A DNA stretch of 62,869 nucleotides, counting the filler, from an uncultured Ignavibacteriales bacterium (GTDB lineage: Bacteria > Zixibacteria > MSB-5A5 > GN15 > JAAZOE01), in the NCBI GenBank assembly GCA_964611355.1. It is 6 parts of 6 records of this genome, joined end to end, with 100 filler letters (N's around TTAATTAATTAA, not from the genome) between each part and the next. Parts side by side here need not be neighbours in the genome. Positions count along the whole stretch, not along the records: positions 1 to 11,858 come from CAZSYD010000066.1; 5 more parts are not named here. One strand, 5' to 3'. Each line of letters starts with the position of its first letter. Position 1 is the stretch's first letter. The translations under genes were made by a program, and so were the position numbers. This document shows positions 1 to 53,932 of the stretch, one piece after another. Below the pieces are notes generated by a model. The model did no database searches, was not told the DNA's origin, and was given only the letters and a program-made list of their open reading frames with translations.

Positions 1-911
1 CTGACGACCCTGGTTCCGGTAACGGCTACAGGCGAGGTATAGCTCCAGCCGCCGGAGGGATTGGGGTCGCCGTCATTGTCGGCGATCCAGGCGATATTGA
101 CGGTGTCCTCATCGATGCACCACTCAGGCGGCATCCTGACCGTCCTCCGGAAACCGCAGATGTCATCGGCATAGCCGGTCGATTCCTTTGACTTGTGATA
201 AACATCAGCGTCAACGTAAAGGGCGACGTATAGGTCCTTTATCGGAAAAGGCCCGATGTTGGTAATCTTGTAATCGAACAGGACAAAATCCTCGGCGTAG
301 TCGTAGCTCCAGGCGTAGCTGTTCTGCTGGACGGAGACATTTATAGGGATATGCGGGCGATTGTCGATGGGATCAGTGCCGGTAAGGCCCGGATTGGTAT
401 TAGTATCGGTAAAAGTACAGATGATATCCTGCTCGGAAATGGCATTAATATCAAAGTTGGTTTTTGATTTGATATTCGATATGGAGATCATGGCCCCGGC
501 ATCTCCGGCGTCGGGGAAAAGTTCCGAGATGTGGTACCACCCGTCTCCCCCCACTGAAACCAGCGTATCTCGACCGATAACGGCGCCAATCCAGACAGCT
601 CCGCAATATAGATAGTCCAGATTGGAGTTAATCGGGTATTCGCAACCAAGTAGCAGCTTGCCATCCAATATGGGTGAGGATATATAGCCGTCCCCAAAAG
701 TGCCGAAATTGGTTACGGCAAGCTTTATCTTGCTGATTCTGTGGGCGTCATATTGAGTGTTTGGCGAGGTTTCATCCGTCGGCTTAAGAAAGGCGTCACC
801 CCCGCCCGGCTGGTATGAATCAAAAAGAGCGCGGGCCCCGATCGGCGTGACCAGAGAAAAACTCAGCATAGATACCAATATCAATGAAAACGCGCCATTT
901 TTGACAGTCAT
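1..911 (-). CDS. Large secreted protein, 5' part (runs off window); paralog of 3700-6213
   Basis: Not in ORF track. Hand translation from ATG at 911: MTVKNGAFSLILVSMLSFSLVTPIGA signal peptide, then DTLVSVG, DPIDNRPHIP, YAWSYDYAEDF, YVDADVYH, DDICG and IAWIADNDGDP blocks shared with 3700-6213; open to the window edge. Confidence 0.9.
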   Translation of the reverse strand, partial: MTVKNGAFSLILVSMLSFSLVTPIGARALFDSYQPGGGDAFLKPTDETSPNTQYDAHRISKIKLAVTNFGTFGDGYISSPILDGKLLLGCEYPINSNLDYLYCGAVWIGAVIGRDTLVSVGGDGWYHISELFPDAGDAGAMISISNIKSKTNFDINAISEQDIICTFTDTNTNPGLTGTDPIDNRPHIPINVSVQQNSYAWSYDYAEDFVLFDYKITNIGPFPIKDLYVALYVDADVYHKSKESTGYADDICGFRRTVRMPPEWCIDEDTVNIAWIADNDGDPNPSGGWSYTSPVAVTGTRVV

Positions 912-1139
912 ACTTCTACCCTTTATTATCAGTAGCTTTTCTTTTCGTTTCGGCCTGTCGCCATTATGAAGACAATCAGACCGCATGGTTGTCAAATCGA
1001 AACATGCCGCCAAGATGCAAAAAAATGACCGGGAAGGAAACTTTTTTTTAGATTACGAACCAAATTTCTTTACCTTCGAATTTCGTATTTGCCGTTTTTG
1101 GGCGTGATTTATCCCCGGAAAATGGTATAATAGCAAATT

Positions 1140-2402
1140 ATGGAAACCGCCCTTTTCCGGCGCGCCCGGGCCGAGTTTGGCGCCTTTGATAATCGCATAT
1201 ACATCCTTGCCGTTGGCCGGCTGGTTACTGCCGCCGGTTTTGCCATGGTAATCCCTTTCATGTCGATCTACTTCTACCAGGAGCTTGGGATGTCGATGAG
1301 CTCCATCGGGTTGTTTTTTGGTTTTTCCGCAGTGTTGCGATCGGCGCCGCAGCCGTTTGCCGGCTGGTTGTCGGATCGTTTGGGCCGAGTGCCGATTATG
1401 GGCTGGTCACAGATACTTCGTGCCGTTACTTTTACCGGAGTCAGCTACGCCATCATATCGGGCGCCGGATTCTGGACTATTGCCGTCCTGATCTCATTCA
1501 ATTACATCTTCGGTGCGGTGCTTCATCCCGCCGCCAACGCCATGGTTGCGGAGCTGGTCAAAAAGGAGCAGCGGATAAAAGGTTTCGCTATGATGCGGAT
1601 CGCGGTTAATCTGGGATGGGCCATCGGCCCGGCTTTGGGCGGCTTTATTGCTCATCGGTCATACGGAGCGCTTTTTTTTCTGGCGGCCATACTGGCGCTT
1701 TTGTCCGGCCTGTTTTTCTTGATTTTCCTGAAAGAAGTTCCCCGAACGAAAAAAACCGAAACTCACGCTTTCAAGCCGGCGGATATATTTACTTTTCGTA
1801 AAGACCGAAAGCTGTTCGAGCACTGCCTGATATCATTTGTTCTATTCCTGGCCGTTGCGCAGCTTATCGCGACACTATCGGTTTACAGCGTTGATGCTAT
1901 CGGCATCAGTCGAGCTCAACTGGGAGCTTTGTATGCCGTCAACGGAGGAATGGTCGTTTTTCTGCAATATTTTATATCACATATTTTCAGGAAATTCAAA
2001 CTGACCAGCCAACTGGCGATTGGTTCGGGAGTTTATGCCGCAGGTTATTTCCTGGTTGGACTGGCTTCCGGCTTTGCCTTTCTTGTGTGCTGCATGGCAA
2101 TAATCACAATAGGGGAAATGATCGTCTCGCCTCCTTCGGTTACGATTGTCGCGAACCTGTCTTCCCCCGAAGAATATGGCCGCTACATGGGTTTGTTCGG
2201 GTTTTTTCAAACGACAGGATGGTCGCTGGGACCGACTGTTGGAGGAGGATTGCTTGATCTTTTTGCCGAAACCCCGATACTAATGTGGTTTTCCGTTTCA
2301 ATCCTGGCCGTAATCGCATTTGTTCTTTTTATTAATTTCGGCAGAAAATTGCCCGGAGATATTAATAGCGGACTCAAGACCGCCGAGGCCGTTCATGGCT
2401 GA
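1140..2402 (+). CDS. MFS transporter (DHA1/MdtH-like)
   Basis: 420 aa, about 12 hydrophobic segments, motif A GWLSDRLGR, GWAIGPALGG. Confidence 0.9.
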   Translation: METALFRRARAEFGAFDNRIYILAVGRLVTAAGFAMVIPFMSIYFYQELGMSMSSIGLFFGFSAVLRSAPQPFAGWLSDRLGRVPIMGWSQILRAVTFTGVSYAIISGAGFWTIAVLISFNYIFGAVLHPAANAMVAELVKKEQRIKGFAMMRIAVNLGWAIGPALGGFIAHRSYGALFFLAAILALLSGLFFLIFLKEVPRTKKTETHAFKPADIFTFRKDRKLFEHCLISFVLFLAVAQLIATLSVYSVDAIGISRAQLGALYAVNGGMVVFLQYFISHIFRKFKLTSQLAIGSGVYAAGYFLVGLASGFAFLVCCMAIITIGEMIVSPPSVTIVANLSSPEEYGRYMGLFGFFQTTGWSLGPTVGGGLLDLFAETPILMWFSVSILAVIAFVLFINFGRKLPGDINSGLKTAEAVHG

Positions 2403-3585
2403 AGTCAACGATATTAAAAACGCCGAGTTTGCCTTTATATATACTGATATCGGGCGCGGTCACCCGAGTTATCTCGACGGAATTATCGAACGGCTCCAAA
2501 ATGATTACCCGTCAATCCGCTATTATCGGACGAATGTCTTTGATATTTCCAGAGGATGGTCACTTTGCGCCTGGCGTTTGGTCAAATGGATGTACCGGTT
2601 TGGAGCCAGGGGTGGTCTTATTACGTCAATTTATGGTCTGGCGCGGCGATTTTCGGGTGCGGGCGAAGGGAGCGGTCTGTTTCTTTACCGGCTTGGACGC
2701 GACATAAGAAAATTGGTTGAACGTTATGATAATCCGGTGGTAGTGGCACATCCGATTTTGGCGAAGATACTTTTAAAAAAATGCCGCGTTATTTATCAAC
2801 ATGGAGAACTGGCCTGCCCCGCCGAAGCGGTTATTAAAGGAGACCATAAGATATTGGTCCCGCTGGACGATGTCGCCGCGAAATTCGAAAAAGCAGGGGT
2901 CGATTCCGGAAATCTGTCGGTAACAGGCCAATGTATTGAAAGCGGGCTGGTCGATCTGGCCGAATCGGCTTTTGAAAAGCGCCTGGAACGCCTTAAAGGT
3001 AATAAACATCTTACGGCGGTCCTCTTTTCTTCGGGAGCTTATCCATCCGCCCATTTACGGAAACTCCGCTGTGCTGCACGGTCGCTTTTGCGGGCAGGCC
3101 ATAACGTTATCTTCTTCGCCGGATTATCATCCCGGATCGCCGATAAGTTCCGCGATTATTTCAATCGAGTCGGTTTTTCTGCCGGTGATAAGGTTGGTGA
3201 CGATACGCAGCTGCGCATAATCTCATCCGAAAGTCGTCAGGATGAAAATCAGAAAGTAACCGCTCTCTTTAACTTTTTTGATTTCTTTATCGCACCGGCG
3301 CATGAGCGAACCAATTGGTCGGTCGGACTGGGACTGCCGCAGTTTATTCCATGCCCTCATATCGGTTCGTATGCTCCTCTTAACGCCGCCATAGCGATTG
3401 AGCGCGGAGTCGCGCGGGAGATTGCCGACGTCAGAACCGCCGCGAGTTTTGCAGAAAGCATGAACTCACTGAGACAAAACGGCGAACTGACTGATATGGC
3501 CCGCCGGGGATTCGGCCATACCCCAATTGACGGTTTTTCCGGATGCGTCATGGTCCTTCTCGACATGCGTGAACAAAGCGGTTGA
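2395..3585 (+). CDS. Putative GT-B glycosyltransferase-like protein
   Basis: ATG at 2395 overlaps the MFS stop; N-terminal YTDIGRGH (GxGH) and C-terminal HERTNWSVGLGLP resemble GT-B nucleotide-sugar motifs. Confidence 0.5.
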   Translation: MAEVNDIKNAEFAFIYTDIGRGHPSYLDGIIERLQNDYPSIRYYRTNVFDISRGWSLCAWRLVKWMYRFGARGGLITSIYGLARRFSGAGEGSGLFLYRLGRDIRKLVERYDNPVVVAHPILAKILLKKCRVIYQHGELACPAEAVIKGDHKILVPLDDVAAKFEKAGVDSGNLSVTGQCIESGLVDLAESAFEKRLERLKGNKHLTAVLFSSGAYPSAHLRKLRCAARSLLRAGHNVIFFAGLSSRIADKFRDYFNRVGFSAGDKVGDDTQLRIISSESRQDENQKVTALFNFFDFFIAPAHERTNWSVGLGLPQFIPCPHIGSYAPLNAAIAIERGVAREIADVRTAASFAESMNSLRQNGELTDMARRGFGHTPIDGFSGCVMVLLDMREQSG

Positions 3586-3699
3586 TGATTGGGCGGGCCG
3601 GAATTATATTATGCTCGTAGATTTTGTACGAACGACCGAATCGCTTCATATTCGGGCGAAAAGAGGCGGTTTGACTTAAATACTAATGTCGGTGAATAT

Positions 3700-6213
3700 A
3701 TGAGATACAGCAGGCTGATTTGGCTGGTTTTGATTCCTTTTCTTTTTGGCGCGGAAGTAGCAACCGCCGCCGCCGTTTTTTATCCGGGTAAGAGCAATGA
3801 TCGTCTTATCAGTCCCAAAACCCAGGCGTTTGATAGTCCCAATTGGTGTATTGAGGTTCATAAAATAAACAATATGTGGCTGACGATTTCGAACGGGGGC
3901 ACATTTGGAATAGGTTTTGCCAATTCGCAAATCGATCCGGAAACCGGTCTGCCTGCGCCGTCGTGCGAGTTCCCGGCCAATTCCAATATAACCTACCTTT
4001 ATGTGGCCGCTTTTTGGGCCGGCGCCGTGGTCGGGCATGATACGCTGGTTTCAGTGGGGGCCGAGGGATACTTTTATGACATCAACGAGTTCTGGCCGCA
4101 ACCCGGGGAAGAAGGGGCTATTATTCGTCGGAGTAATATGAAGACCTCGCTCGATTATTCGCCCGACGCCGTCTCGGAACAGGATTTCATCTGCAGTTAT
4201 ACCGATACTTTCACCGATCCCGGTCTGACCAGTATCGATCCCATCGACAACCGTCCTCATATTCCGCTTGGCTTGGAAGTCAAACAGCGCACATACGCCT
4301 GGAGTTATGACTATGCCGAGGATTTTATAATTTTCGACTACACCATAAAAAATATCAATATCTTTCCGCTTAAGGATATTTACTTTGGCATTTACGTGGA
4401 CGCTGATGTCTATCATGAATCGCGACAGGGGGGAACGGCATGGAATGATGATATTTGCGGTTATCTTCATTCAGTGCCGTCATCCGATCCGCCCGGTTTC
4501 GAAGATACGGTTCGCATCGCCTGGACGGCCGATAACGACGGCGACCCGTCCGAAGTTGGCGGGACGCCTGTTTTTAATTATACCTCGGCGAGGGCTTTGA
4601 CCGGCACGGCCGTGCTTCGGACACCCAACCCTGATCTGAAATACTCATTCAATTGGTGGATTGCCAACGGCAATCCAACCCTCGACTGGGGCCCGCGCAT
4701 GGCCGGAACCGAAGAGAAACCGTTTCGCGATTTCGGGACGGGCATGGGTTCGCCCACCGGCGATAAGAATAAATACTATATCCTTTCCAGCAACGAATTC
4801 GATTATAATCAGCTTGAATCGGCCATAAGCCATACCAGCGAAGGGTTCATGGCTCCGCCGCGCGATGCCGAGGATTTCGCCGACGGATTTGATGCGCGCT
4901 ATCTTTTCTCCTTCGGGCCGTTTGATCTCCAGCCCGATGACACGTTGCCGATTACGCTGGCTTATGTGGCTGGCGATTGGTTTCATCAGGAGTCGGACGA
5001 TTTTATCAAATTCTGGGACGCTTATCAGCCTCGGTTTTATCAGAACCATCTGAGTTTCGCCGATCTCGGAATCAACGCTATGTGGGCGCAATGGATTTTC
5101 GACAATCCCGGCGTCGATACCGACGATGACGGCGATTCCGGCAGGGTGCGCTGGGTGATCGATTCGACCAACATGGATTCAACCGGCTTTTTCTATGCCG
5201 GTGACGGCGTCCCTGATTTGCGGGGAGCCTCGCCGCCCCCGCCGCCGGAAGTAAGGGTTTTACCGGACTTCGGCAAACTGCGCGTCAGGTGGAACGGGCA
5301 ATTAAGCGAAAACAATATCGACATATTTTCCGATCTCAAGGATTTTGAGGGGTATCGCGTTTATTACGGCGAGGACAATCGGGTCGGCGATTATGTTCTT
5401 CTGGCGACCTACGACCGAGATGATTACAATCTTTACACCTGGGATCCGGTGATGCAGCGCTGGAATATATCCGATATGCCTTTTACGCGCGATTCCATTG
5501 AAACGTTATTTGGAGAAGGATTTGATCCCAATTATTTTACGAATCCGGCATCGCCATGTGAGAAGAACGGAGTATTTTACTATTTTCGTCCCCAGGAATG
5601 GAACGATTCGAACCTTTCAAACCTGCACGGCATCCATCGCCTCTACCCGGAAGCCGATCTGAACGACCGCGGTGATACTACAGAGGATGGTTATCACCGT
5701 ATTTACGAGTATGAATATATCATCGAGAATCTTCAACCATCCAAGCCCTATTACGTCACCGTGACCGCTTTCGATTTTGGCAGCCGCAAAATCGCCCTGT
5801 CATCGTTGGAATCGGCGTTCAATATAAATTCCGTTCTGGCCTATCCGCTTCCGTCGACTGAAGTGGTGGAAAAGGAAGGGTTGAATGTGATGGTTTATCC
5901 CAATCCGTACCGCATTGACGGCGGCTATGCGGCGGCGGGATACGAAAACCGCGATCGTACCAAATCGGCTGAGCGGTCGCGTTCCATTCATTTCTATAAT
6001 CTGCCTTCGATTTGTACTATTCGTATCTATACCGTCAGCGGCGATCTGGTGCAGGAGATTGAGCATTATCGTCCGGACGCCGGTCCCGACGCGCAGCACG
6101 AACGCTGGAATTTAATCAGTCGCAACACGCAGGCGGTCGTCACCGGCATCTATATTTATCATGTTTCATCCTCAATGGGCGAGCAGTTGGGCAAGATTGT
6201 GATTATTAAATAG
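3700..6213 (+). CDS. Large secreted protein with C-terminal FlgD/T9SS-like sorting domain
   Basis: Signal peptide MRYSRLIWLVLIPFLFGAEVATA; Fn3-like DFEGYRVY...YYVTVTAFD; C-terminus VYPNPY...IHFYNLPSICTIRIYTVSGDLV...WNLISRN...TGIYIYHV...GKIVIIK. Confidence 0.85.
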   Translation: MRYSRLIWLVLIPFLFGAEVATAAAVFYPGKSNDRLISPKTQAFDSPNWCIEVHKINNMWLTISNGGTFGIGFANSQIDPETGLPAPSCEFPANSNITYLYVAAFWAGAVVGHDTLVSVGAEGYFYDINEFWPQPGEEGAIIRRSNMKTSLDYSPDAVSEQDFICSYTDTFTDPGLTSIDPIDNRPHIPLGLEVKQRTYAWSYDYAEDFIIFDYTIKNINIFPLKDIYFGIYVDADVYHESRQGGTAWNDDICGYLHSVPSSDPPGFEDTVRIAWTADNDGDPSEVGGTPVFNYTSARALTGTAVLRTPNPDLKYSFNWWIANGNPTLDWGPRMAGTEEKPFRDFGTGMGSPTGDKNKYYILSSNEFDYNQLESAISHTSEGFMAPPRDAEDFADGFDARYLFSFGPFDLQPDDTLPITLAYVAGDWFHQESDDFIKFWDAYQPRFYQNHLSFADLGINAMWAQWIFDNPGVDTDDDGDSGRVRWVIDSTNMDSTGFFYAGDGVPDLRGASPPPPPEVRVLPDFGKLRVRWNGQLSENNIDIFSDLKDFEGYRVYYGEDNRVGDYVLLATYDRDDYNLYTWDPVMQRWNISDMPFTRDSIETLFGEGFDPNYFTNPASPCEKNGVFYYFRPQEWNDSNLSNLHGIHRLYPEADLNDRGDTTEDGYHRIYEYEYIIENLQPSKPYYVTVTAFDFGSRKIALSSLESAFNINSVLAYPLPSTEVVEKEGLNVMVYPNPYRIDGGYAAAGYENRDRTKSAERSRSIHFYNLPSICTIRIYTVSGDLVQEIEHYRPDAGPDAQHERWNLISRNTQAVVTGIYIYHVSSSMGEQLGKIVIIK

Positions 6214-6243
6214 AAAAGCAGTATTTATTAAAAGTGGCCGCAA

Positions 6244-6278
6244 GTCGGGTTCCGAAGTCGCAGGCGGAGAAAACCGAC
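6244..6278 (+). repeat. REP-like palindromic repeat, copy 1 (degenerate)
   Basis: gtcgggttccga...ggcggagaaaaccgac, between convergent genes; matches copies at 35802, 43726, 59993. Confidence 0.6.
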
Positions 6279-6285
6279 AAATCGA

Positions 6286-6957
6286 CTAAAACCCTTCCGG
6301 CAGCGTATCGCCGCTTTCTCCGATGAGTATAATTGAACTGTCGGTTACTTCATATTGCCAGATATGACTGAGCGAACATACCGGGATGCAATCGCCGCCC
6401 CACCGAAATTGGAATTCATATTGGGGAAGATCTACGAATATCCGGCTACCGTCGGCCCCAATGGATACCGCTGAAGCCCATTCCACGCCGTTGGCGTAAT
6501 TATAAATCTCGGCGATACTGTCGGAATGATAGGGAAGAGCGAAGTTGATCTTCATCTGACGATATTGAGAATACCAGATTACATGGGCGGTATCGTAGAG
6601 GTTATTCAGTGAATCGAGGCCGTGATAAGTCCCGGCCTCGTATGCCGCGGCCGTGGCCGCCGTAAGCTGAACGGTTATCCGGCCAGCCGGCCGGTTTTCA
6701 AAATGCTTGACCTTGTTCATATCCGGAAACGTATCACGGATAGACCGCAGGTCTTCGTCAATTGTTTTATAAAGAGTTGTATCGGGCAAAAAGGTCGGGT
6801 CTACCTGCAGGGTCAGGTGTACCGCTTCGGTATCGCTGTAGTCGAATCTTTTTGGTTTCTCCGGGCCGGTCGAGCTGTCGTCCGAACCGCATCCGGCAGC
6901 AATTGCCATTCCGGTCAGGAGAATACAGGTCAAGGTTCTGATATGCGACGATGTCAT
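6286..6957 (-). CDS. Hypothetical lipoprotein
   Basis: Lipobox IAAGC after a hydrophobic stretch; C-terminal WGGDCIPVC Cys pair. Confidence 0.75.
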   Translation of the reverse strand: MTSSHIRTLTCILLTGMAIAAGCGSDDSSTGPEKPKRFDYSDTEAVHLTLQVDPTFLPDTTLYKTIDEDLRSIRDTFPDMNKVKHFENRPAGRITVQLTAATAAAYEAGTYHGLDSLNNLYDTAHVIWYSQYRQMKINFALPYHSDSIAEIYNYANGVEWASAVSIGADGSRIFVDLPQYEFQFRWGGDCIPVCSLSHIWQYEVTDSSIILIGESGDTLPEGF

Positions 6958-7183
6958 AAGGCCTTCCCTTATGTAAATTCGGCCAATAGTTGTACAATTT
7001 TATGATATATACGGCCTAAATCAAGGCAATTTAAACAGATGAGCGGTACTTGGTTTCCGTGTACGTTATGAAAGTGGGATATCATCGCTACAATATTTTC
7101 AATTCGCGGCCTTAGTGCCCTTGATTTATCTACGGCGAGTTTGTATATATAAATTTTTGCCGGAGTAACTGAGGTAGTTTTAT

Positions 7184-8137
7184 ATGAAGAGAATATTGGT
7201 TATCGGCGCGCTGGGTCAGATTGGGTCGGAGTTGATTATTGCCCTGCGGAGAAAATACGGCGACGACAACGTTATTGCCACCGATGTACGGATGCCGACC
7301 GACCGGACCCTGCGCGACGGCGGGCCGTTTGATTTTCTCGATGTCCTTGATGAAAACCATATTACGCGCGTTATGCGGCAATTTAAGGTTGATACTATCT
7401 TCCACATGGCCGCTATTCTTTCGGCTGTTGGAGAAACCCGCCCGAAGGTCGCCTGGCGGGTCAATGTCGATGGCCTGTATAATGTGCTCGAAGCGGCCCG
7501 GCAGTATAAATGCGCCCTGTTTTTCCCCAGCTCCATCGGCGCTTTTGGCCCGACCACACCCGGGGACAATACCCCCCAGGAGACTATCATGCGGCCTGAG
7601 ACGATGTATGGTATTACCAAGCTGGCGGGCGAGCTGCTTTGCGATTACTATTTCAAAAGGTTCGGCGTCGATGCCCGCAGCGTCCGTTTCCCGGGTTTGA
7701 TTTCGTATGAAACTAAGCCGGGCGGCGGTACGACCGATTATGCGGTGGAAATATTTTTCGAAGCGATCCGCCATAAGAAGTACACCTGCTATCTGCGTTC
7801 CGATACCTCGCTGGATATGATGTATATGCCCGACGCCATCAAGGCGATGATCGACCTGATGGAGGCCGACGGCAAAAAACTTATCCATCGCAACGCCTAT
7901 AACATTACCGCCATGAGCTTCACTCCGGAAAAACTCTCAGGGGAGATTCGCAAACATATTCCGGAGTTTGTCATCAATTATGACGTTGACCCTGTGCGCC
8001 AGGCGATAGCCGATTCGTGGCCGAACCGCATGGATGATTCCGCTGCCCGTGAAGAGTGGGGCTGGGCGCACGAATACGATCTTCCTCGAATGACAAAAGC
8101 CATGATCGAGACGTTATCCCGGAAGCCGGTCGCTTGA
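7184..8137 (+). CDS. tdh: L-threonine 3-dehydrogenase (SDR/epimerase type)
   Basis: GALGQIG Rossmann motif, HMAAILSAVGE, PSSIGAFG, YGITK (YxxxK), PGGGTTDYAV typical of SDR-type ThrDH; kbl in the same cluster. Confidence 0.85.
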   Translation: MKRILVIGALGQIGSELIIALRRKYGDDNVIATDVRMPTDRTLRDGGPFDFLDVLDENHITRVMRQFKVDTIFHMAAILSAVGETRPKVAWRVNVDGLYNVLEAARQYKCALFFPSSIGAFGPTTPGDNTPQETIMRPETMYGITKLAGELLCDYYFKRFGVDARSVRFPGLISYETKPGGGTTDYAVEIFFEAIRHKKYTCYLRSDTSLDMMYMPDAIKAMIDLMEADGKKLIHRNAYNITAMSFTPEKLSGEIRKHIPEFVINYDVDPVRQAIADSWPNRMDDSAAREEWGWAHEYDLPRMTKAMIETLSRKPVA

Positions 8138-8187
8138 ATGGCTAAGAGGAAGCTATTTGATCCGGGATTTTATGGCGGAGTAAGATT

Positions 8188-8562
8188 TTGATTTTCGGCA
8201 TCGGTATAGACGTAATAGAAGTGGCGCGGGTTGAGAAACAGGTTTGCAGTGAGAATGGCCTCAGAGAGAAACTGTTTACGACCGGTGAAATCGAGTACTG
8301 CGAATCGAAAAGATACAGTGCTCAAAACTATGCCGCTCGTTTTGCCGCCAAAGAAGCCTTTATGAAAGCAATGGGAACCTGCGGGCAGGATGCGCCTGCG
8401 TTTCGCGAGATAGAAATCGTCAACGATAAACGAGGAAGACCGGCGCTTGTATTGCACGGCAGGGCAGAGGAACTTGTAAAACTGAATAAAATTACAAACA
8501 TTCAGGTTTCTTTGTCGCATATAAAAGATTTTGCCGGCGCCATCGTTGTGCTGGAGAAGTAA
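8188..8562 (+). CDS. acpS: Holo-ACP synthase (4'-phosphopantetheinyl transferase)
   Basis: GIGIDVIE, ARFAAKEAFMKA, GRP, VSLSH; TTG start after GGAG. Confidence 0.95.
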   Translation: MIFGIGIDVIEVARVEKQVCSENGLREKLFTTGEIEYCESKRYSAQNYAARFAAKEAFMKAMGTCGQDAPAFREIEIVNDKRGRPALVLHGRAEELVKLNKITNIQVSLSHIKDFAGAIVVLEK

Positions 8563-8578
8563 AAAAGGAATGCCAACT

Positions 8579-10285
8579 ATGTCAAACGTGGGATTATACG
8601 AAGAAAGAATTAAAGATTTTGATTGGTCGATATCCGAAAAGGAACTTGGGTTCGAGAGGGGCGATGTACTCAATATAGGCTGGTACTGTTCGGACAGGAT
8701 TTGCCGCATGGGTAAAGCCGATAAGCCGGCTCTTATCTGGGAAGGCGTGGGTGGAGTAGAAAAAATATATACCTTCAACGATATCCGTCTGGCGAGTAAC
8801 GCAGTTGGCGCTTTTCTCAGAGGCCTGGGAATCAAAAACGAAGACAGAGTTTGCCTTTTCATGGATAAGATTCCGGAATTGTATCTCGGTTTATTGGGTG
8901 TCTTGAAGATTGGGGCGATTGCGCAACCGCTTTTCTCGGCTTTTGGCGATGAATCCCTGCATGTTCGGCTTGATAACGCCAAAACAACCGCGATTATCAC
9001 GCAGAGAAAGCATGTTTCCAAGATTCGAAGAATTATCGGCAAAATGCCGTATCTTAAGCGGATTATCATTGTCGATTATGACGGCCGAAAACCGCTTCAG
9101 GAAAGGGAAATAGCTTTCTCTCTGGAGGAATCGACACCTGTTGAGGAGCTTGAAATCTTCCCCACGAAAGCCGACTCGCCTTCGCTACTTCATTACACGT
9201 CCGGAACGACGGGGCAGCCCAAGGGGGTCAGGCATGTTCATTACTCGCTCATAGCCCAGTATTTATCGACCAAATGGGTTCTGGATTTGCAGGACGATGA
9301 TATCTATTGGTGCACCGCCGATCCGGGCTGGGTAACCGGCACTTCTTATGGAATCATCGGTCCTTGGAGTATGGGCGCTACTCAGTGCGTTCAGGACATT
9401 GGTTTTTCGGCGGAATCGTGGTATAAATTCATCGAAAAGCGAAAAATTACGGTATGGTATTCTGCGCCGACTGCCATCCGGTCTTTGATGAAAGCCGGAG
9501 ATGAACTGGTTGCCAGGCATGACCTCTCTTCTCTTCGGCACCTGGCCAGCGTGGGGGAGCCGCTTAATGCCGAAGCGGTCGTATGGTCGGAGAGAGTCTT
9601 TGGACGTCCCTTTCATGATACGTACTGGCAAACCGAGACGGGGTCGATAATGCTGACGAATTTCCCTGGAATGAAAATCAAACCCGGGTCGATGGGCAGA
9701 CCTTTTCCGGGAATCACCGCTGTTGTTCTTGATCTCAAAACATTTGAACCGATCAATGAACCCGGGCGCGTCGGTTTGATAGCATTCAAGCCGGGTTGGC
9801 CGTCCATGTTGAGAGGGTACTGGAACAACGAGGTGACCTATAAGGCCAAGTTCAAGAACGGGTGGTATCTTTCCGGGGATCGTTCGAGTATCGATAAGGA
9901 CGGCTATTTCTGGTTTACCGGACGCGACGACGATGTCATAAATACCGGCGGTCATCTTGTGAGTCCTTTTGAAGTGGAATCGGCGCTTTTGGAGCACGAG
10001 GCGGTGGCGGAATCGGCCGTGGTGGCAAAGCCGGACGAAGTCAATATGGAAGTCGTGAAAGCGTTCATAACCTTGAAACCGGGATATACTGCCGACGCCG
10101 ATCTTGAGTTGAAGATTATGAATTTTATCCGCAAAAAGCTCTCGCCTTTGGCCATGCCCCAGGATATTGAATATGTAAGCGCGCTTCCAAGGACCAGGAG
10201 CGGCAAAATCATGAGACGAATCCTGCGCGCCAAAGAGTGGGGTGAAGAGATCGGTGATACGTCCACCCTTGAAGACGACGAGTAA
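8579..10285 (+). CDS. acsA: AMP-forming acetate--CoA/ACP ligase (AcsA-like)
   Basis: YTSGTTGQPKG, ADPGWVTG, SVGEP, DTYWQTETG, GRDDD, PRTRSGKIMRR. Confidence 0.9.
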   Translation: MSNVGLYEERIKDFDWSISEKELGFERGDVLNIGWYCSDRICRMGKADKPALIWEGVGGVEKIYTFNDIRLASNAVGAFLRGLGIKNEDRVCLFMDKIPELYLGLLGVLKIGAIAQPLFSAFGDESLHVRLDNAKTTAIITQRKHVSKIRRIIGKMPYLKRIIIVDYDGRKPLQEREIAFSLEESTPVEELEIFPTKADSPSLLHYTSGTTGQPKGVRHVHYSLIAQYLSTKWVLDLQDDDIYWCTADPGWVTGTSYGIIGPWSMGATQCVQDIGFSAESWYKFIEKRKITVWYSAPTAIRSLMKAGDELVARHDLSSLRHLASVGEPLNAEAVVWSERVFGRPFHDTYWQTETGSIMLTNFPGMKIKPGSMGRPFPGITAVVLDLKTFEPINEPGRVGLIAFKPGWPSMLRGYWNNEVTYKAKFKNGWYLSGDRSSIDKDGYFWFTGRDDDVINTGGHLVSPFEVESALLEHEAVAESAVVAKPDEVNMEVVKAFITLKPGYTADADLELKIMNFIRKKLSPLAMPQDIEYVSALPRTRSGKIMRRILRAKEWGEEIGDTSTLEDDE

Positions 10286-10315
10286 AAGCTGAATTTCAAT
10301 AAACGGGAGACAGTC

Positions 10316-10561
10316 ATGGAAGAAATGAAAGATATTATCCTGAAGTATGTAATTGACGAGTATCTCGAAGATGAGGACGAAGAAATAAGTTTCGACACGC
10401 CGCTGATCTCCGGCGGGATCGTCGATTCCTTCTCCATGGTTTCTTTGAAAAGGTTTCTGGAAAACAAGTACAGTATTTCCATTCCGGACGACAAAGCCAC
10501 GCCGGAAGCTTTCGATTCGGTCAATAAAATCGTCATCTTAGTGAACGACTTTTTGAAATAA
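10316..10561 (+). CDS. Acyl carrier protein
   Basis: 81 aa, very acidic, GIVDSFSMV with the phosphopantetheine Ser; RBS GGGAG. Confidence 0.92.
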   Translation: MEEMKDIILKYVIDEYLEDEDEEISFDTPLISGGIVDSFSMVSLKRFLENKYSISIPDDKATPEAFDSVNKIVILVNDFLK

Positions 10562-10686
10562 TCGGGCAGGCTGCCGGTTCGCTCTGATGACAAAAATGAA
10601 CAGCGGTCATTGCGAGGTCGTCCCGGCAGCGTGGTAATACCAATGAACACTCGCAATTCAGTATAGCTTGTGATAAGGAGTTGAAA

Positions 10687-11858
10687 ATGGGTTATAGCGA
10701 CAAGGTCAGAGGGATATATCAAGAGCAGATTAAGGGTATTCACGACGCGGGGATTTTCAAGCAGGAACGATTTATACATTCCTCTCAGGCGGCTGACATC
10801 GAAGTGGAGTATCCGACCGGGTCTCCCCTGAAAAAAGTAATCAATATGTGCGCCAACAACTACCTGGGGCTTTCCAGTCATCCGGACGTTGTCAAGGCGG
10901 CGCATGACGGATTGGACGCGCGCGGATACGGGATGTCTTCGGTCCGCTTCATTTGCGGGACACAGGATATTCATAATGAACTGGAAAAGAAGGTTACTGA
11001 ATTTTTGGGGACGGAAGACACCATCCTTTTTCCGTCCTGCATGGATGCCAATGCCGGTGTGTTTGAAGCCATTCTCACCAATGAAGACGTGATGATTTCC
11101 GACCGGCTGGTGCACGCTTCGATAATCGACGGTATTCGCTTATGCAGCGCCATGCACGATACTTTCAAGCACTCGAACATGAAGCACCTCGAACAGAAAC
11201 TTCAGCTTCATGCCGACAAAAGGTTCAAACTCGTTATTACCGACGGCGTTTTTTCCATGGACGGAGACACCGCTAAACTCGACGAAATAGTCGATCTGTG
11301 CGAGAAATACGACGCCATGGTTTTTTTGGACGATTCGCACTCGTCCGGTTTTATCGGAAAAACCGGACGGGGAACTCACGAAAAATGCGGCGTTATGGGC
11401 AAAATCGATATTATCACGACCACTTTCGGCAAGGCCCTGGGCGGCGCTTCGGGCGGCTGTGTTTCCGGCCGAAAAGAACTGGTTGAGATGTGTCGTCAAA
11501 AAGCGCGTCCGTATCTTTTCTCCAACACTATCGCACCGGTCGTCGTTTCCGGCGTTTTGAAAGTGCTCGATATTCTTTCGCAAAGCACCGAGCGCCGAGA
11601 CAAGCTCGAATCGAACACCAAATACTGGCGAAAGGGCCTGACCGAGGCCGGTTTTGTCCTCAAGGAAGGCGATACGCCGATTGTTCCGGTAATGCTTTTC
11701 AACGCCAAACTGTCTCAGGATTTCTCCCGCGACCTGTATGATGAAGGCATCTATGCCATAGGCTTTTTCTTTCCCGTGGTGCCCAACGGTCAGGCAAGAA
11801 TAAGAACGCAGATTTCCGCCGGTCACGAGATTCATCATCTGGATAAAGCTCTGGACGC
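10687..11858 (+). CDS. kbl: 2-amino-3-ketobutyrate CoA ligase (glycine C-acetyltransferase), 3' end truncated by contig end
   Basis: CANNYLGL, SVRFICGTQ, HASIIDG, DGVFSMDG, DDSH, GKALGGASGG (PLP Lys), RPYLFSN, ARIRTQ. Confidence 0.92.
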
Positions 11859-11958
11859 NNNNNNNNNNNNNNNNNNNNNNNNNNNNNNNNNNNNNNNNNN
11901 NNTTAATTAATTAANNNNNNNNNNNNNNNNNNNNNNNNNNNNNNNNNNNNNNNNNNNN
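11859..11958. other. Artificial contig linker
   Basis: N-run/TTAATTAATTAA/N-run with stops in all six frames. Confidence 0.98.
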
Positions 11959-23720: not shown

Positions 23721-23820
23721 NNNNNNNNNNNNNNNNNNNNNNNNNNNNNNNNNNNNNNNNNNNNTTAATTAATTAANNNNNNNNNNNNNNNNNNNNNNNN
23801 NNNNNNNNNNNNNNNNNNNN
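23721..23820. other. Artificial contig linker
   Basis: N-run/TTAATTAATTAA/N-run. Confidence 0.98.
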
Positions 23821-33914: not shown

Positions 33915-34014
33915 NNNNNNNNNNNNNNNNNNNNNNNNNNNNNNNNNNNNNNNNNNNNTTAATTAATTAANNNNNNNNNNNNNNNNNNNNNNNNNNNNNN
34001 NNNNNNNNNNNNNN
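33915..34014. other. Artificial contig linker
   Basis: N-run/TTAATTAATTAA/N-run. Confidence 0.98.
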
Positions 34015-44038: not shown

Positions 44039-44138
44039 NNNNNNNNNNNNNNNNNNNNNNNNNNNNNNNNNNNNNNNNNNNNTTAATTAATTAANNNNNN
44101 NNNNNNNNNNNNNNNNNNNNNNNNNNNNNNNNNNNNNN
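44039..44138. other. Artificial contig linker
   Basis: N-run/TTAATTAATTAA/N-run. Confidence 0.98.
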
Positions 44139-53832: not shown

Positions 53833-53932
53833 NNNNNNNNNNNNNNNNNNNNNNNNNNNNNNNNNNNNNNNNNNNNTTAATTAATTAANNNNNNNNNNNN
53901 NNNNNNNNNNNNNNNNNNNNNNNNNNNNNNNN
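53833..53932. other. Artificial contig linker
   Basis: N-run/TTAATTAATTAA/N-run. Confidence 0.98.

Follow-up and report, generated by a model that had tools for sequence, protein, structure and literature searches.

The window analysed here is a stretch of 62,869 nucleotides of DNA from an uncultured bacterium of the Zixibacteria lineage, and near its beginning lie five genes whose products, taken together, suggest a route between acetate, glycine and threonine that would run on a private acyl carrier protein (ACP) in place of coenzyme A (CoA). Positions 1-11858 are a single contig (C66) of a metagenome-assembled genome (MAG; G000) that comprises 110 contigs and 2.57 Mb, with completeness at 96.4% and contamination at 1.7%. 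Six contigs make up the window; each joint between them (11859-11958, 23721-23820, 33915-34014, 44039-44138 and 53833-53932) consists of two runs of 44 N flanking the spacer TTAATTAATTAA, and no feature is readable across the joints. A preliminary description had placed five co-oriented genes on one contig, and the open reading frames (ORFs) of the plus strand, together with their family assignments, confirm it:

7184..8137, plus strand: L-threonine 3-dehydrogenase (tdh) of the short-chain dehydrogenase/reductase (SDR) type, 317 aa; Pfam Epimerase at 110 bits and matches to solved enzymes
8188..8562, plus strand: cassette-borne holo-ACP synthase (AcpS), 124 aa; TIGR00516 and PF01648
8573..10285, plus strand: AcsA-like adenylate-forming ligase, 570 aa from its ATG, proposed as an acetate:holo-ACP ligase; NF003313 and 9g79
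8531..10285, plus strand: the same ligase from an alternative start, an in-frame TTG at 8531, giving 584 aa and overlapping acpS
10316..10561, plus strand: stand-alone acidic carrier protein (ACP), 81 aa; profile match to solved type II carrier proteins
10687..11858 (alternative start 10681), plus strand: Kbl1, an alpha-oxoamine synthase that resembles glycine C-acetyltransferase and forms a subfamily of its own, the 3' end of its gene lost at the contig end; NF005394 and TIGR01822

The Kbl1 frame meets the N run at 11859, and therefore only the last few residues of Kbl are missing. Gaps of 50, about 10, 30 and 125 nt separate the genes along tdh-acpS-ligase-ACP-Kbl1, and the five form one operon. 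A scan of the operon region for consensus promoters and terminators gave nothing decisive and singled out no internal terminator; in 10 loci Rfam yielded a tRNA as its sole hit, with no riboswitch or other kind of RNA element at the gathering score. As to plasmid carriage, the single plasmid match was unrelated (48%).

The cassette and its proteins

An orthologue of the ligase (69-100% identity) occurs in 18 of the 41 genomes of the window's order, and the order ligase-ACP-Kbl1 is kept in all 16 relatives' loci that were fetched. A scan with the ACP alignment across one genome per GTDB species returned at least 601 stretches and at least 554 confirmed loci, of which the best 80 were examined, three of these lying on the same contigs as the relatives' loci. 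Where the contig leaves room, the ligase stands directly upstream of the ACP in 72 of 76 of the best 80 loci, Kbl1 directly downstream in 76 of 77, and an acpS no more than 2.6 kb upstream in 53 of 67, an arrangement far beyond chance. The hosts, named after submitters' record titles of which a few look doubtful, are Zixibacteria, Delongbacteria, Bacteroidales/Prolixibacteraceae, Aminicenantes/Acidobacteria, Cloacimonadales, KSB1 and Elusimicrobiaceae, lineages and habitats that we take to be anaerobic. Identities across these groups are unusually high for the ligase (mean 77%, minimum 66%), for Kbl1 (mean 82%, minimum 70%) and for the ACP (72-88%), and because of this we infer that acpS-ligase-ACP-Kbl1 is a self-sufficient, horizontally spread cassette. 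The conserved unit of five genes that had been proposed thus stands in part: genes are conserved together across genomes, while the core comprises acpS, ligase, ACP and Kbl1 and not all five.

The carrier protein holds an invariant stretch, PLISGGIVDSFSMVSL, with its phosphopantetheine serine at Ser38; D37-S38 is invariant in 16 of 16 orthologues, whose alignment has a mean column identity of 79%. With 19 acidic and 8 basic residues, it matches by profile the solved type II carrier proteins 6cxt (4.7e-14), PigG, PltL and DltC, and the last three are carriers loaded by stand-alone adenylating enzymes. No NCBIfam family claims it above cut-off, the best being NF052616 at 59.1 bits, so far short of the required 130 that a link to the OlsH/I ornithine-lipid proteins was rejected. 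Likewise, PF00550 (PP-binding) gives no match at E <= 0.001 and the sole Pfam match, PF23297 at 19.6 bits, is below cut-off; in Atlas clusters of look-alikes of this ACP, PF00550 is found on 35-47% of members. The phosphopantetheinyl transferase (PPTase) that accompanies it, AcpS, scores 89.7 bits with TIGR00516 (cut-off 59.8) and also matches PF01648. Another acpS lies elsewhere in the window's genome (contig C54, 91.5 bits), and the PPTase of the cassette is therefore an extra one, so that the claim of a dedicated ACP with a second PPTase holds. Two further observations concern this family. Three proteins of 231-239 aa (P0008, P0009 and P0012) join an AcpS domain (PF01648) to the cassette-ACP family, either as real fusions or as merged gene calls. 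Further, the window's genome encodes one more carrier protein (contig C29:10186-10494; L002:1474-1782), a divergent one that shares 30% identity with the cassette ACP, adjoins a NAD+ synthase gene and stays under the AcpP cut-off (TIGR00517, 31.4 against 70.45).

The ligase passes the NCBIfam model for acetate--CoA ligase (NF003313, 737.7 bits, cut-off 729), stays under TIGR02188 (498.9 against 724.95) and has as its best solved relative a 572-aa acetyl-CoA synthetase, 9g79, matched over its full length at 9.3e-165. Translation and alignment recover all of the motifs that had been read in it, GWVT, SVGEP, DTYWQTE and GGHL. When 84 cassette orthologues are mapped and numbered on E. coli Acs, the acetate-pocket residues V310, T311 and V386 and the catalytic K609 are invariant (84/84 each), and W414 is retained in 82, with Phe in the other 2; the acetate pocket is thus kept, as proposed. 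According to those parts of PMC10455477 that concern these residues, Acs has three highly conserved arginines, of which Arg526 stabilises the thioester-forming conformation through the adenylate phosphate, while Arg191 and Arg584 contact the phosphates of CoA, Arg584 at the 3'-phosphate. The three are not all conserved in the cassette ligases: Arg526, the A8 position, is Leu in 84 of 84, which makes the A8 change noted beforehand a true clade signature, while Arg584 is retained in all 84. At Arg191, where the alignment is gapped, none of the 84 has an aligned Arg, and Arg194 aligns with Arg in 82. A search among longer proteins containing the cassette ACP brought out one natural ligase-ACP fusion, P0015, a clean in-frame protein of 659 aa with 6 member sequences on 5 contigs, the ligase part of which passes the NF003313 cut-off; the apparent fusions P0006, P0014 and P0005, which are probably frameshifted or merged gene calls and have low-complexity stretches in their junctions, were left uncounted. 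Directly after kbl1, an AceTr/SatP acetate channel (NF038013, 273.9 bits) is encoded in 21 of the 48 loci with room for it, and in 25 when every locus is counted; in one locus the neighbour of Kbl1 is an ActP/MctC-like symporter that stays under its cut-offs. Pocket residues and adjoining channel together point to acetate as the acid that the ligase would activate. That its acceptor would be the ACP and not CoA is suggested by the P0015 fusion, the Arg526Leu change, the second AcpS and the likeness of the ACP to PigG, PltL and DltC.

Kbl1, even without its last residues, passes both models for glycine C-acetyltransferase (NF005394, 562.9 against 460; TIGR01822, 561 against 493) and matches the solved Kbl structures 7v58 (3.8e-133) and 1fc4 (3.2e-131). 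Many loci hold a second Kbl (Kbl2) that is 50-67% identical to it. The copy that adjoins the ACP, Kbl1 (84 sequences), has a mean identity to E. coli Kbl of 52%, and the other copy, Kbl2 (41 sequences), one of 60%. At 11 positions Kbl1 is invariant and differs from both Kbl2 and E. coli Kbl, and two of the Kbl1-specific substitutions, F112M and N135V, flank active-site motifs. In a quick tree search over 62 sampled rows, during which the program warned of long branches, Kbl1 forms one clade (SH-aLRT, the Shimodaira-Hasegawa-like approximate likelihood ratio test, 100) with a long stem and short inner branches, nested among canonical Kbl. The active site itself, which we take to comprise N50, H136, S185, D210, H213, T241, K244 (the pyridoxal phosphate lysine), S274 and R368 of the E. 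coli enzyme, is invariant at all nine mapped positions in 84/84 Kbl1 and in 40-41/41 Kbl2. As far as sequence can tell, then, Kbl1 is a derived, slowly evolving subfamily that coexists with ordinary Kbl, and its context (the adjoining ACP, the separate clade, the co-resident canonical Kbl) argues that its thioester substrate would be acetyl-ACP. Membership in a sphingolipid cluster was rejected, as Kbl1 fails the serine palmitoyltransferase (SPT) models NF047600 (311.8/640), NF047599 (269.4/500) and NF047603 (227.7/670). The genome's other alpha-oxoamine synthase (contig C28:356-1387; L004) has as its best match the Bacteroidota-type SPT model NF047600, at 501.6 bits on a part of 344 aa (cut-off 640), and is possibly a sphingolipid gene in a Zixibacteria-like MAG.

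Given that the ligase and Kbl1 both pass NCBIfam equivalog cut-offs of CoA enzymes, one might see here an ordinary acetyl-CoA synthetase next to an ordinary catabolic Tdh/Kbl pair, with the ACP and AcpS as passengers that serve another pathway; acpS beside unrelated genes is, after all, common. We hold this to be very improbable, since the ACP lies between ligase and Kbl1 in nearly every locus (72/76, 76/77) and across phyla, the two partners are fused in P0015, Arg526 is Leu in 84/84, Kbl1 forms a clade apart beside canonical Kbl, and the genome has another acpS.

It is somewhat less improbable, while still hard to credit, that the cassette makes another product: a different small acid such as propionate or glycolate could give a threonine analogue, for example 4-hydroxythreonine, or the keto-amine could be decarboxylated to aminoacetone for pyrazines or an amino-alcohol. 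The acid is deduced from pocket residues only, the 11 clade-specific substitutions of Kbl1 include F112M and N135V beside active-site motifs, and 2 of 50 cassette genomes have no recognisable Tdh, all of which would suit such a product. Nevertheless, the pocket, including its Trp gate, is of the acetate-specific Acs type, both types of accompanying Tdh closely resemble characterised L-threonine dehydrogenases, Kbl retains its residues for catalysis and for the substrate carboxylate, and the associated channel is of the acetate type.

Association with threonine dehydrogenase operons

The Tdh of the window is UDP-galactose-4-epimerase-like, with GALGQIG at its N terminus and Y142xxxK, and matches solved SDR-type L-threonine 3-dehydrogenases (7cgv, 9.2e-132; 7ol1, 1.4e-126; others to 1.4e-74); 18 solved chains match it at E <= 1e-20, the great majority of them named L-threonine 3-dehydrogenase. 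NCBIfam has no model for this family. Three native arrangements of tdh and kbl host the cassette. Within the window's order (families f1 and f3) the arrangement is SDR tdh-acpS-ligase-ACP-Kbl1 in 9 of 9 loci, acpS being detected in 8, with tdh orthologues 67-79% identical to that of the window in the same position in all nine. In another family, f4, the gene immediately before that of the ligase encodes a Zn-type Tdh (TIGR00692, 394 bits; NF003808, 381.8 against 380) in 7 of 7 loci, Kbl2 comes after Kbl1, and SDR tdh was not found in the five f4 genomes searched. In Bacteroidales and Aminicenantes the usual order is Kbl2-acpS-ligase-ACP-Kbl1. Among 48 loci with enough flank, Kbl2 is present in 35 and SDR tdh in 7, and of 50 cassette genomes from other groups, 48 encode a recognisable Tdh at some place (42 SDR, 6 Zn). 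The single Kbl of the preliminary description is therefore not the rule, as a second, canonical Kbl usually adjoins the cassette, which that account had not foreseen.

The Zixibacteria loci reveal where the cassette entered. In all five cassette-less relatives examined (L129-L133; G002, G010, G018, G006, G014) SDR tdh is directly followed by K3, an alpha-oxoamine synthase of ~410 aa that shares 33-38% identity with Kbl1 and stays below cut-off as Kbl (314 bits), BioF (283) and SPT (228); K3 is probably the Zixibacteria lineage's own Kbl, missed by the models. Orthologues of K3 stand directly after Kbl1 in eight Zixibacteria-type loci (e.g. L031:10423-11655), the cassette being inserted exactly between tdh and its native partner. 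The assembly of the window's own genome holds no Kbl2 or K3. Because three native tdh/kbl set-ups host the cassette, and because an unrelated type of Tdh has been swapped in, these contexts are the strongest evidence that the cassette acts at the node of threonine and 2-amino-3-oxobutanoate. The functional tie of threonine dehydrogenase to the unit, proposed from one locus, is upheld by the non-homologous Zn-type enzyme that replaces the SDR type in 7 of 7 f4 loci.

The pairing of Kbl1 with a canonical Kbl in one operon (35 of 48 loci, in addition to the K3 and f4 loci) also admits a cycle in which glycine is a catalyst: the ligase would make acetyl-ACP, Kbl1 would condense this with glycine, the CoA-dependent Kbl2 or K3 would split the product into glycine and acetyl-CoA, the sum would equal the reaction of acetyl-CoA synthetase, and threonine would only buffer the intermediate. 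Most Bacteroidales and Aminicenantes operons are without tdh (SDR tdh in 7 of 48 loci), the acetate channel lies within the operon, and canonical Acs is scarce, the 650-aa enzyme being present in the window's order in 5 of 18 cassette genomes versus 16 of 23 genomes without the cassette and scoring above cut-off in only 11 of 50 cassette genomes of other groups. Such a cycle is, however, roundabout compared with a single Acs and brings no evident gain; the window's genome has tdh at the head of the operon while its assembly is without Kbl2 and K3, and the Bacteroidales sample displays no complementarity with Acs. We therefore hold the cycle to be quite improbable. Similarly, the idea of the cassette as a general replacement of Acs, which the counts in the window's order seemed to offer, was dropped, as there is no such contrast in the Bacteroidales-order sample.

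Several neighbouring genes are recorded here for completeness. In three f4 loci (L034:9883-12599, L037:9773-12519 and L038:9675-12424) the Zn-tdh is immediately preceded, on the same strand, by genes for an ATP-type phosphoenolpyruvate carboxykinase and a phosphofructokinase (TIGR02483, mixed-type, 442 bits). After kbl1 in one close relative (G003, L026:9964-13406) follow, on the same strand, a DUF985 cupin, a protein like 3-hydroxy-3-methylglutaryl-CoA (HMG-CoA) synthase, a thiolase and a ChsH2-type OB-fold (oligonucleotide/oligosaccharide-binding fold) protein, amounting to a trio of the acetoacetyl-CoA/HMG-CoA type beside the cassette. Divergently upstream of tdh in another locus stands a TetR-family regulator gene, a candidate regulator of the operon (L031:4425-5018), and an ORF of the same size (198 aa) occupies the matching position in L033 (10173-10766). 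In the window itself, two ORFs upstream of tdh, at 3589-6213 (874 aa) and 6286-6957 (223 aa), match no Pfam family at E <= 1e-5.

Proposed mechanism, direction and auxotrophy

A carrier-dependent chemistry linking acetate, glycine and threonine is well supported as a deduction from these families, fusions and contexts. In the scheme that we favour, the cassette AcpS would place phosphopantetheine on Ser38 of the ACP; the ligase would adenylate acetate and pass the acetyl group to the ACP instead of CoA, at the cost of ATP going to AMP and pyrophosphate (PPi); Kbl1 would join acetyl-ACP and glycine to 2-amino-3-oxobutanoate; and Tdh with NADH would reduce this to L-threonine. The core cassette plugs into operons for threonine dehydrogenase and Kbl. 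The condensation is uphill because no CO2 is released, much like that of thiolase, by an estimate from textbook free energies, and while the shared CoA pool could not drive it, a private carrier pool could, with an ATP-to-AMP ligase to maintain it close to full acetylation. Such a pool would also commit free acetate to the route, in the way that AcpR and AasR commit fatty acids to sphingolipids.

The computed evidence does not decide which way the pathway runs. The sequence of acetate activation, condensation with glycine and reduction to threonine is our preferred account, held at slightly less than even confidence. Adenylate-forming ligases generally run toward the thioester; the E. coli annotation places an acetate transporter in the acs operon (acs-yjcH-actP), where it serves acetate uptake; and both points count for the forward direction. 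It is favoured, too, because the AasR/AcpR/SPT precedent runs forward and because the cassette partly complements canonical Acs in the window's order (5/18 versus 16/23).

Several findings weigh against synthesis of threonine on a dedicated carrier, and the first concern the enzymes. The ligase does pass the NCBIfam cut-off for acetate--CoA ligase, by a margin of 9 bits, and with its retained Arg584 it may also use CoA. A canonical and presumably CoA-dependent Kbl, which most loci encode as well (Kbl2 in 35 of 48 loci, K3 in others), would drain 2-amino-3-oxobutanoate to acetyl-CoA. Other points concern the sample: as the 80 loci are those that score best among at least 554, remoter relatives of the ACP may have other contexts, and counts across relatives are not phylogenetically independent. 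In the Bacteroidales-order sample of 61 genomes, canonical Acs is present in 1 of 9 genomes with the cassette versus 10 of 52 without it, which is no clear complementarity. A further objection is the homoserine route itself. From the best 80 loci, 50 cassette genomes of other phyla were taken (G041-G090; 3 duplicates and 27 others, mostly on short contigs, were left out before results were obtained), and ThrC is present in 43 of the 50, in 40 above cut-off, in a set for which no completeness values are at hand. Therefore the cassette is no general substitute for the homoserine route, and the homoserine-independent replacement route envisaged in the preliminary description is not supported.

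The anticorrelation with thrB/thrC predicted on the same grounds fares no better. Beyond the 43 of 50 genomes just named, thrC (scored as present at >=145 bits) occurs within the window's order in 3 of 18 cassette genomes versus 12 of 23 without the cassette, and this contrast does not discriminate because the order is broadly auxotrophic: hisD is found in 1 of its 41 genomes (G000-G040) while all 14 control genomes were positive, hom in 11 of 41, and thrC is missing from 26 of 41. The usual route to histidine appears to be missing from the order as a whole, and its members look as if they lived on peptides, in which case Tdh/Kbl would be expected to break threonine down, a further point that tells against synthesis. 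In the window's own genome hom is present, split over two contig ends, and thrC was not found, a ThrC query from G012 giving no tblastn match at 1e-10; hom and thrC are both present in G003 and G012, the cassette-bearing genomes closest to it.

These observations lend some weight to the opposite direction, a carrier-channelled fermentation in which Tdh oxidises threonine, Kbl1 and holo-ACP yield glycine and acetyl-ACP, the ligase runs backwards with AMP and PPi to release acetate and ATP, which by way of the private carrier pool would save the energy of the thioester, and SatP exports the acetate. We regard it as unlikely, if still the most serious rival. The hosts come from lineages that are presumably anaerobic, and those of the window's order, with hisD missing from 40 of 41 genomes and thrC from 26 of 41, are likely consumers of amino acids. 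The operons that receive the cassette are invariably of the tdh/kbl kind, which textbooks assign to catabolism, and a Kbl1 co-expressed with a Kbl of the CoA type would provide two parallel sinks. In Syntrophus aciditrophicus an AMP-forming Acs reportedly works backwards to make ATP. The glycine cleavage T protein, present in all five cassette genomes checked, has been counted here, and it fits either direction, as do the AckA and ADP-forming acetyl-CoA synthetase found in cassette genomes; the glycine reductase model GRDB gave no match there, its controls being silent too. Against reversal, AckA and the ADP-forming synthetase would already give ATP from acetyl-CoA, and to reverse an AMP-forming ligase at millimolar acetate would take a ratio of acetylated to free carrier in the thousands, again by an estimate from textbook free energies. 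We know of no carrier-protein ligase that runs in reverse, and NCBIfam names the channel family an acetate uptake transporter, though such channels can work both ways. The bolder form of this idea, that the cassette is an add-on for carrier-protein-based substrate-level phosphorylation, passed among anaerobes and raising the ATP yield of amino-acid fermentation, appears a shade more doubtful.

Comparison with known systems

The nearest metabolic relative is the Tdh/Kbl degradation pathway (E. coli kbl-tdh; EC 1.1.1.103 and 2.3.1.29), with which the cassette loci share the same two chemistries, the adjacency of the genes (in the annotation of NC_000913.3) and a Kbl1 that passes the Kbl cut-offs and keeps the catalytic positions. 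In contrast to that pathway, a carrier protein, a PPTase and an acetate-activating ligase stand between the two genes, Kbl1 belongs to a separate subfamily (52% identical to E. coli Kbl, Kbl2 60%), and the acyl carrier would be the ACP and not CoA. The nearest solved relative of the ligase, the Bacillus-type AcsA (9g79), resembles it in its short architecture, its acetate pocket and the catalytic Lys. It differs in carrying Arg at the A8 position where the cassette ligases have Leu (84/84), and the cassette ligase gene is followed by that of a carrier protein, to which it is fused in P0015. By score the cassette enzymes are thus members of the Kbl and AcsA families, from which they depart in one defining Arg of Acs and, probably, in their thiol substrate. 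Acetylation of a carrier thiol with free acetate and ATP, as proposed here, is also the work of the acetate:SH-ACP ligases CitC of citrate lyase and MadH of malonate decarboxylase. These belong to another protein family, act on a different prosthetic group, and supply an acetyl group that primes a lyase cycle and is not a stoichiometric substrate.

In the literature searched (ACP or acetyl-ACP with Kbl, threonine dehydrogenase or threonine biosynthesis; subscription journals being outside its scope) no description of the module was found. A carrier-dependent pathway would have several implications. In hundreds of anaerobic species, the enzymes that NCBIfam names 'acetate--CoA ligase' and 'glycine C-acetyltransferase' would in truth be an acetate:ACP ligase and a synthase dependent on acetyl-ACP, and models of acetate, glycine and threonine flux would need revising for uncultured lineages of sediment, peat and digesters (Zixibacteria, Aminicenantes, Bacteroidales, Cloacimonadota). 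Should the pathway run forward, it would offer a short route, driven by ATP, that makes threonine from acetate and glycine, of interest to C1/C2 bioconversion designs and encoded by a compact cassette of four or five small genes; should it run in reverse, it would represent a new mode of energy conservation. More broadly, a C2 unit of central amino-acid metabolism would join lipids and natural products, where the principle of the private carrier is already known.

The closest parallel in design is the AasR/AcpR/SPT system of sphingolipid synthesis. In the parts of PMC9386255 that deal with these proteins, AasR acylates AcpR only, SPT prefers acyl-AcpR, and this specificity is argued to divert free fatty acids into one pathway. 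The resemblance to a sphingolipid cluster noted in the preliminary description was apt, since on that published account AasR/AcpR/SPT is a proven precedent: an alpha-oxoamine synthase is fed by a specialised ACP, an adenylate-forming ligase loads this ACP, the genes are clustered, and a reductase follows. In the cassette, likewise, a dedicated ACP has its gene beside those of an adenylate-forming ligase and of an alpha-oxoamine synthase (16/16; 72/76 and 76/77). The two differ in that the acid of the cassette would be C2 and not a long-chain fatty acid, the amino acid glycine and not serine, and the product a soluble amino acid and not a lipid; they occur in other phyla, the cassette ligase is Acs-like and not FadD-like, and the cassette synthase fails all three SPT models. 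Because its synthase fails those models and its ligase is Acs-like, the cassette, by its protein families, is no member of the AasR/AcpR/SPT system, even as it appears to work in the same way.

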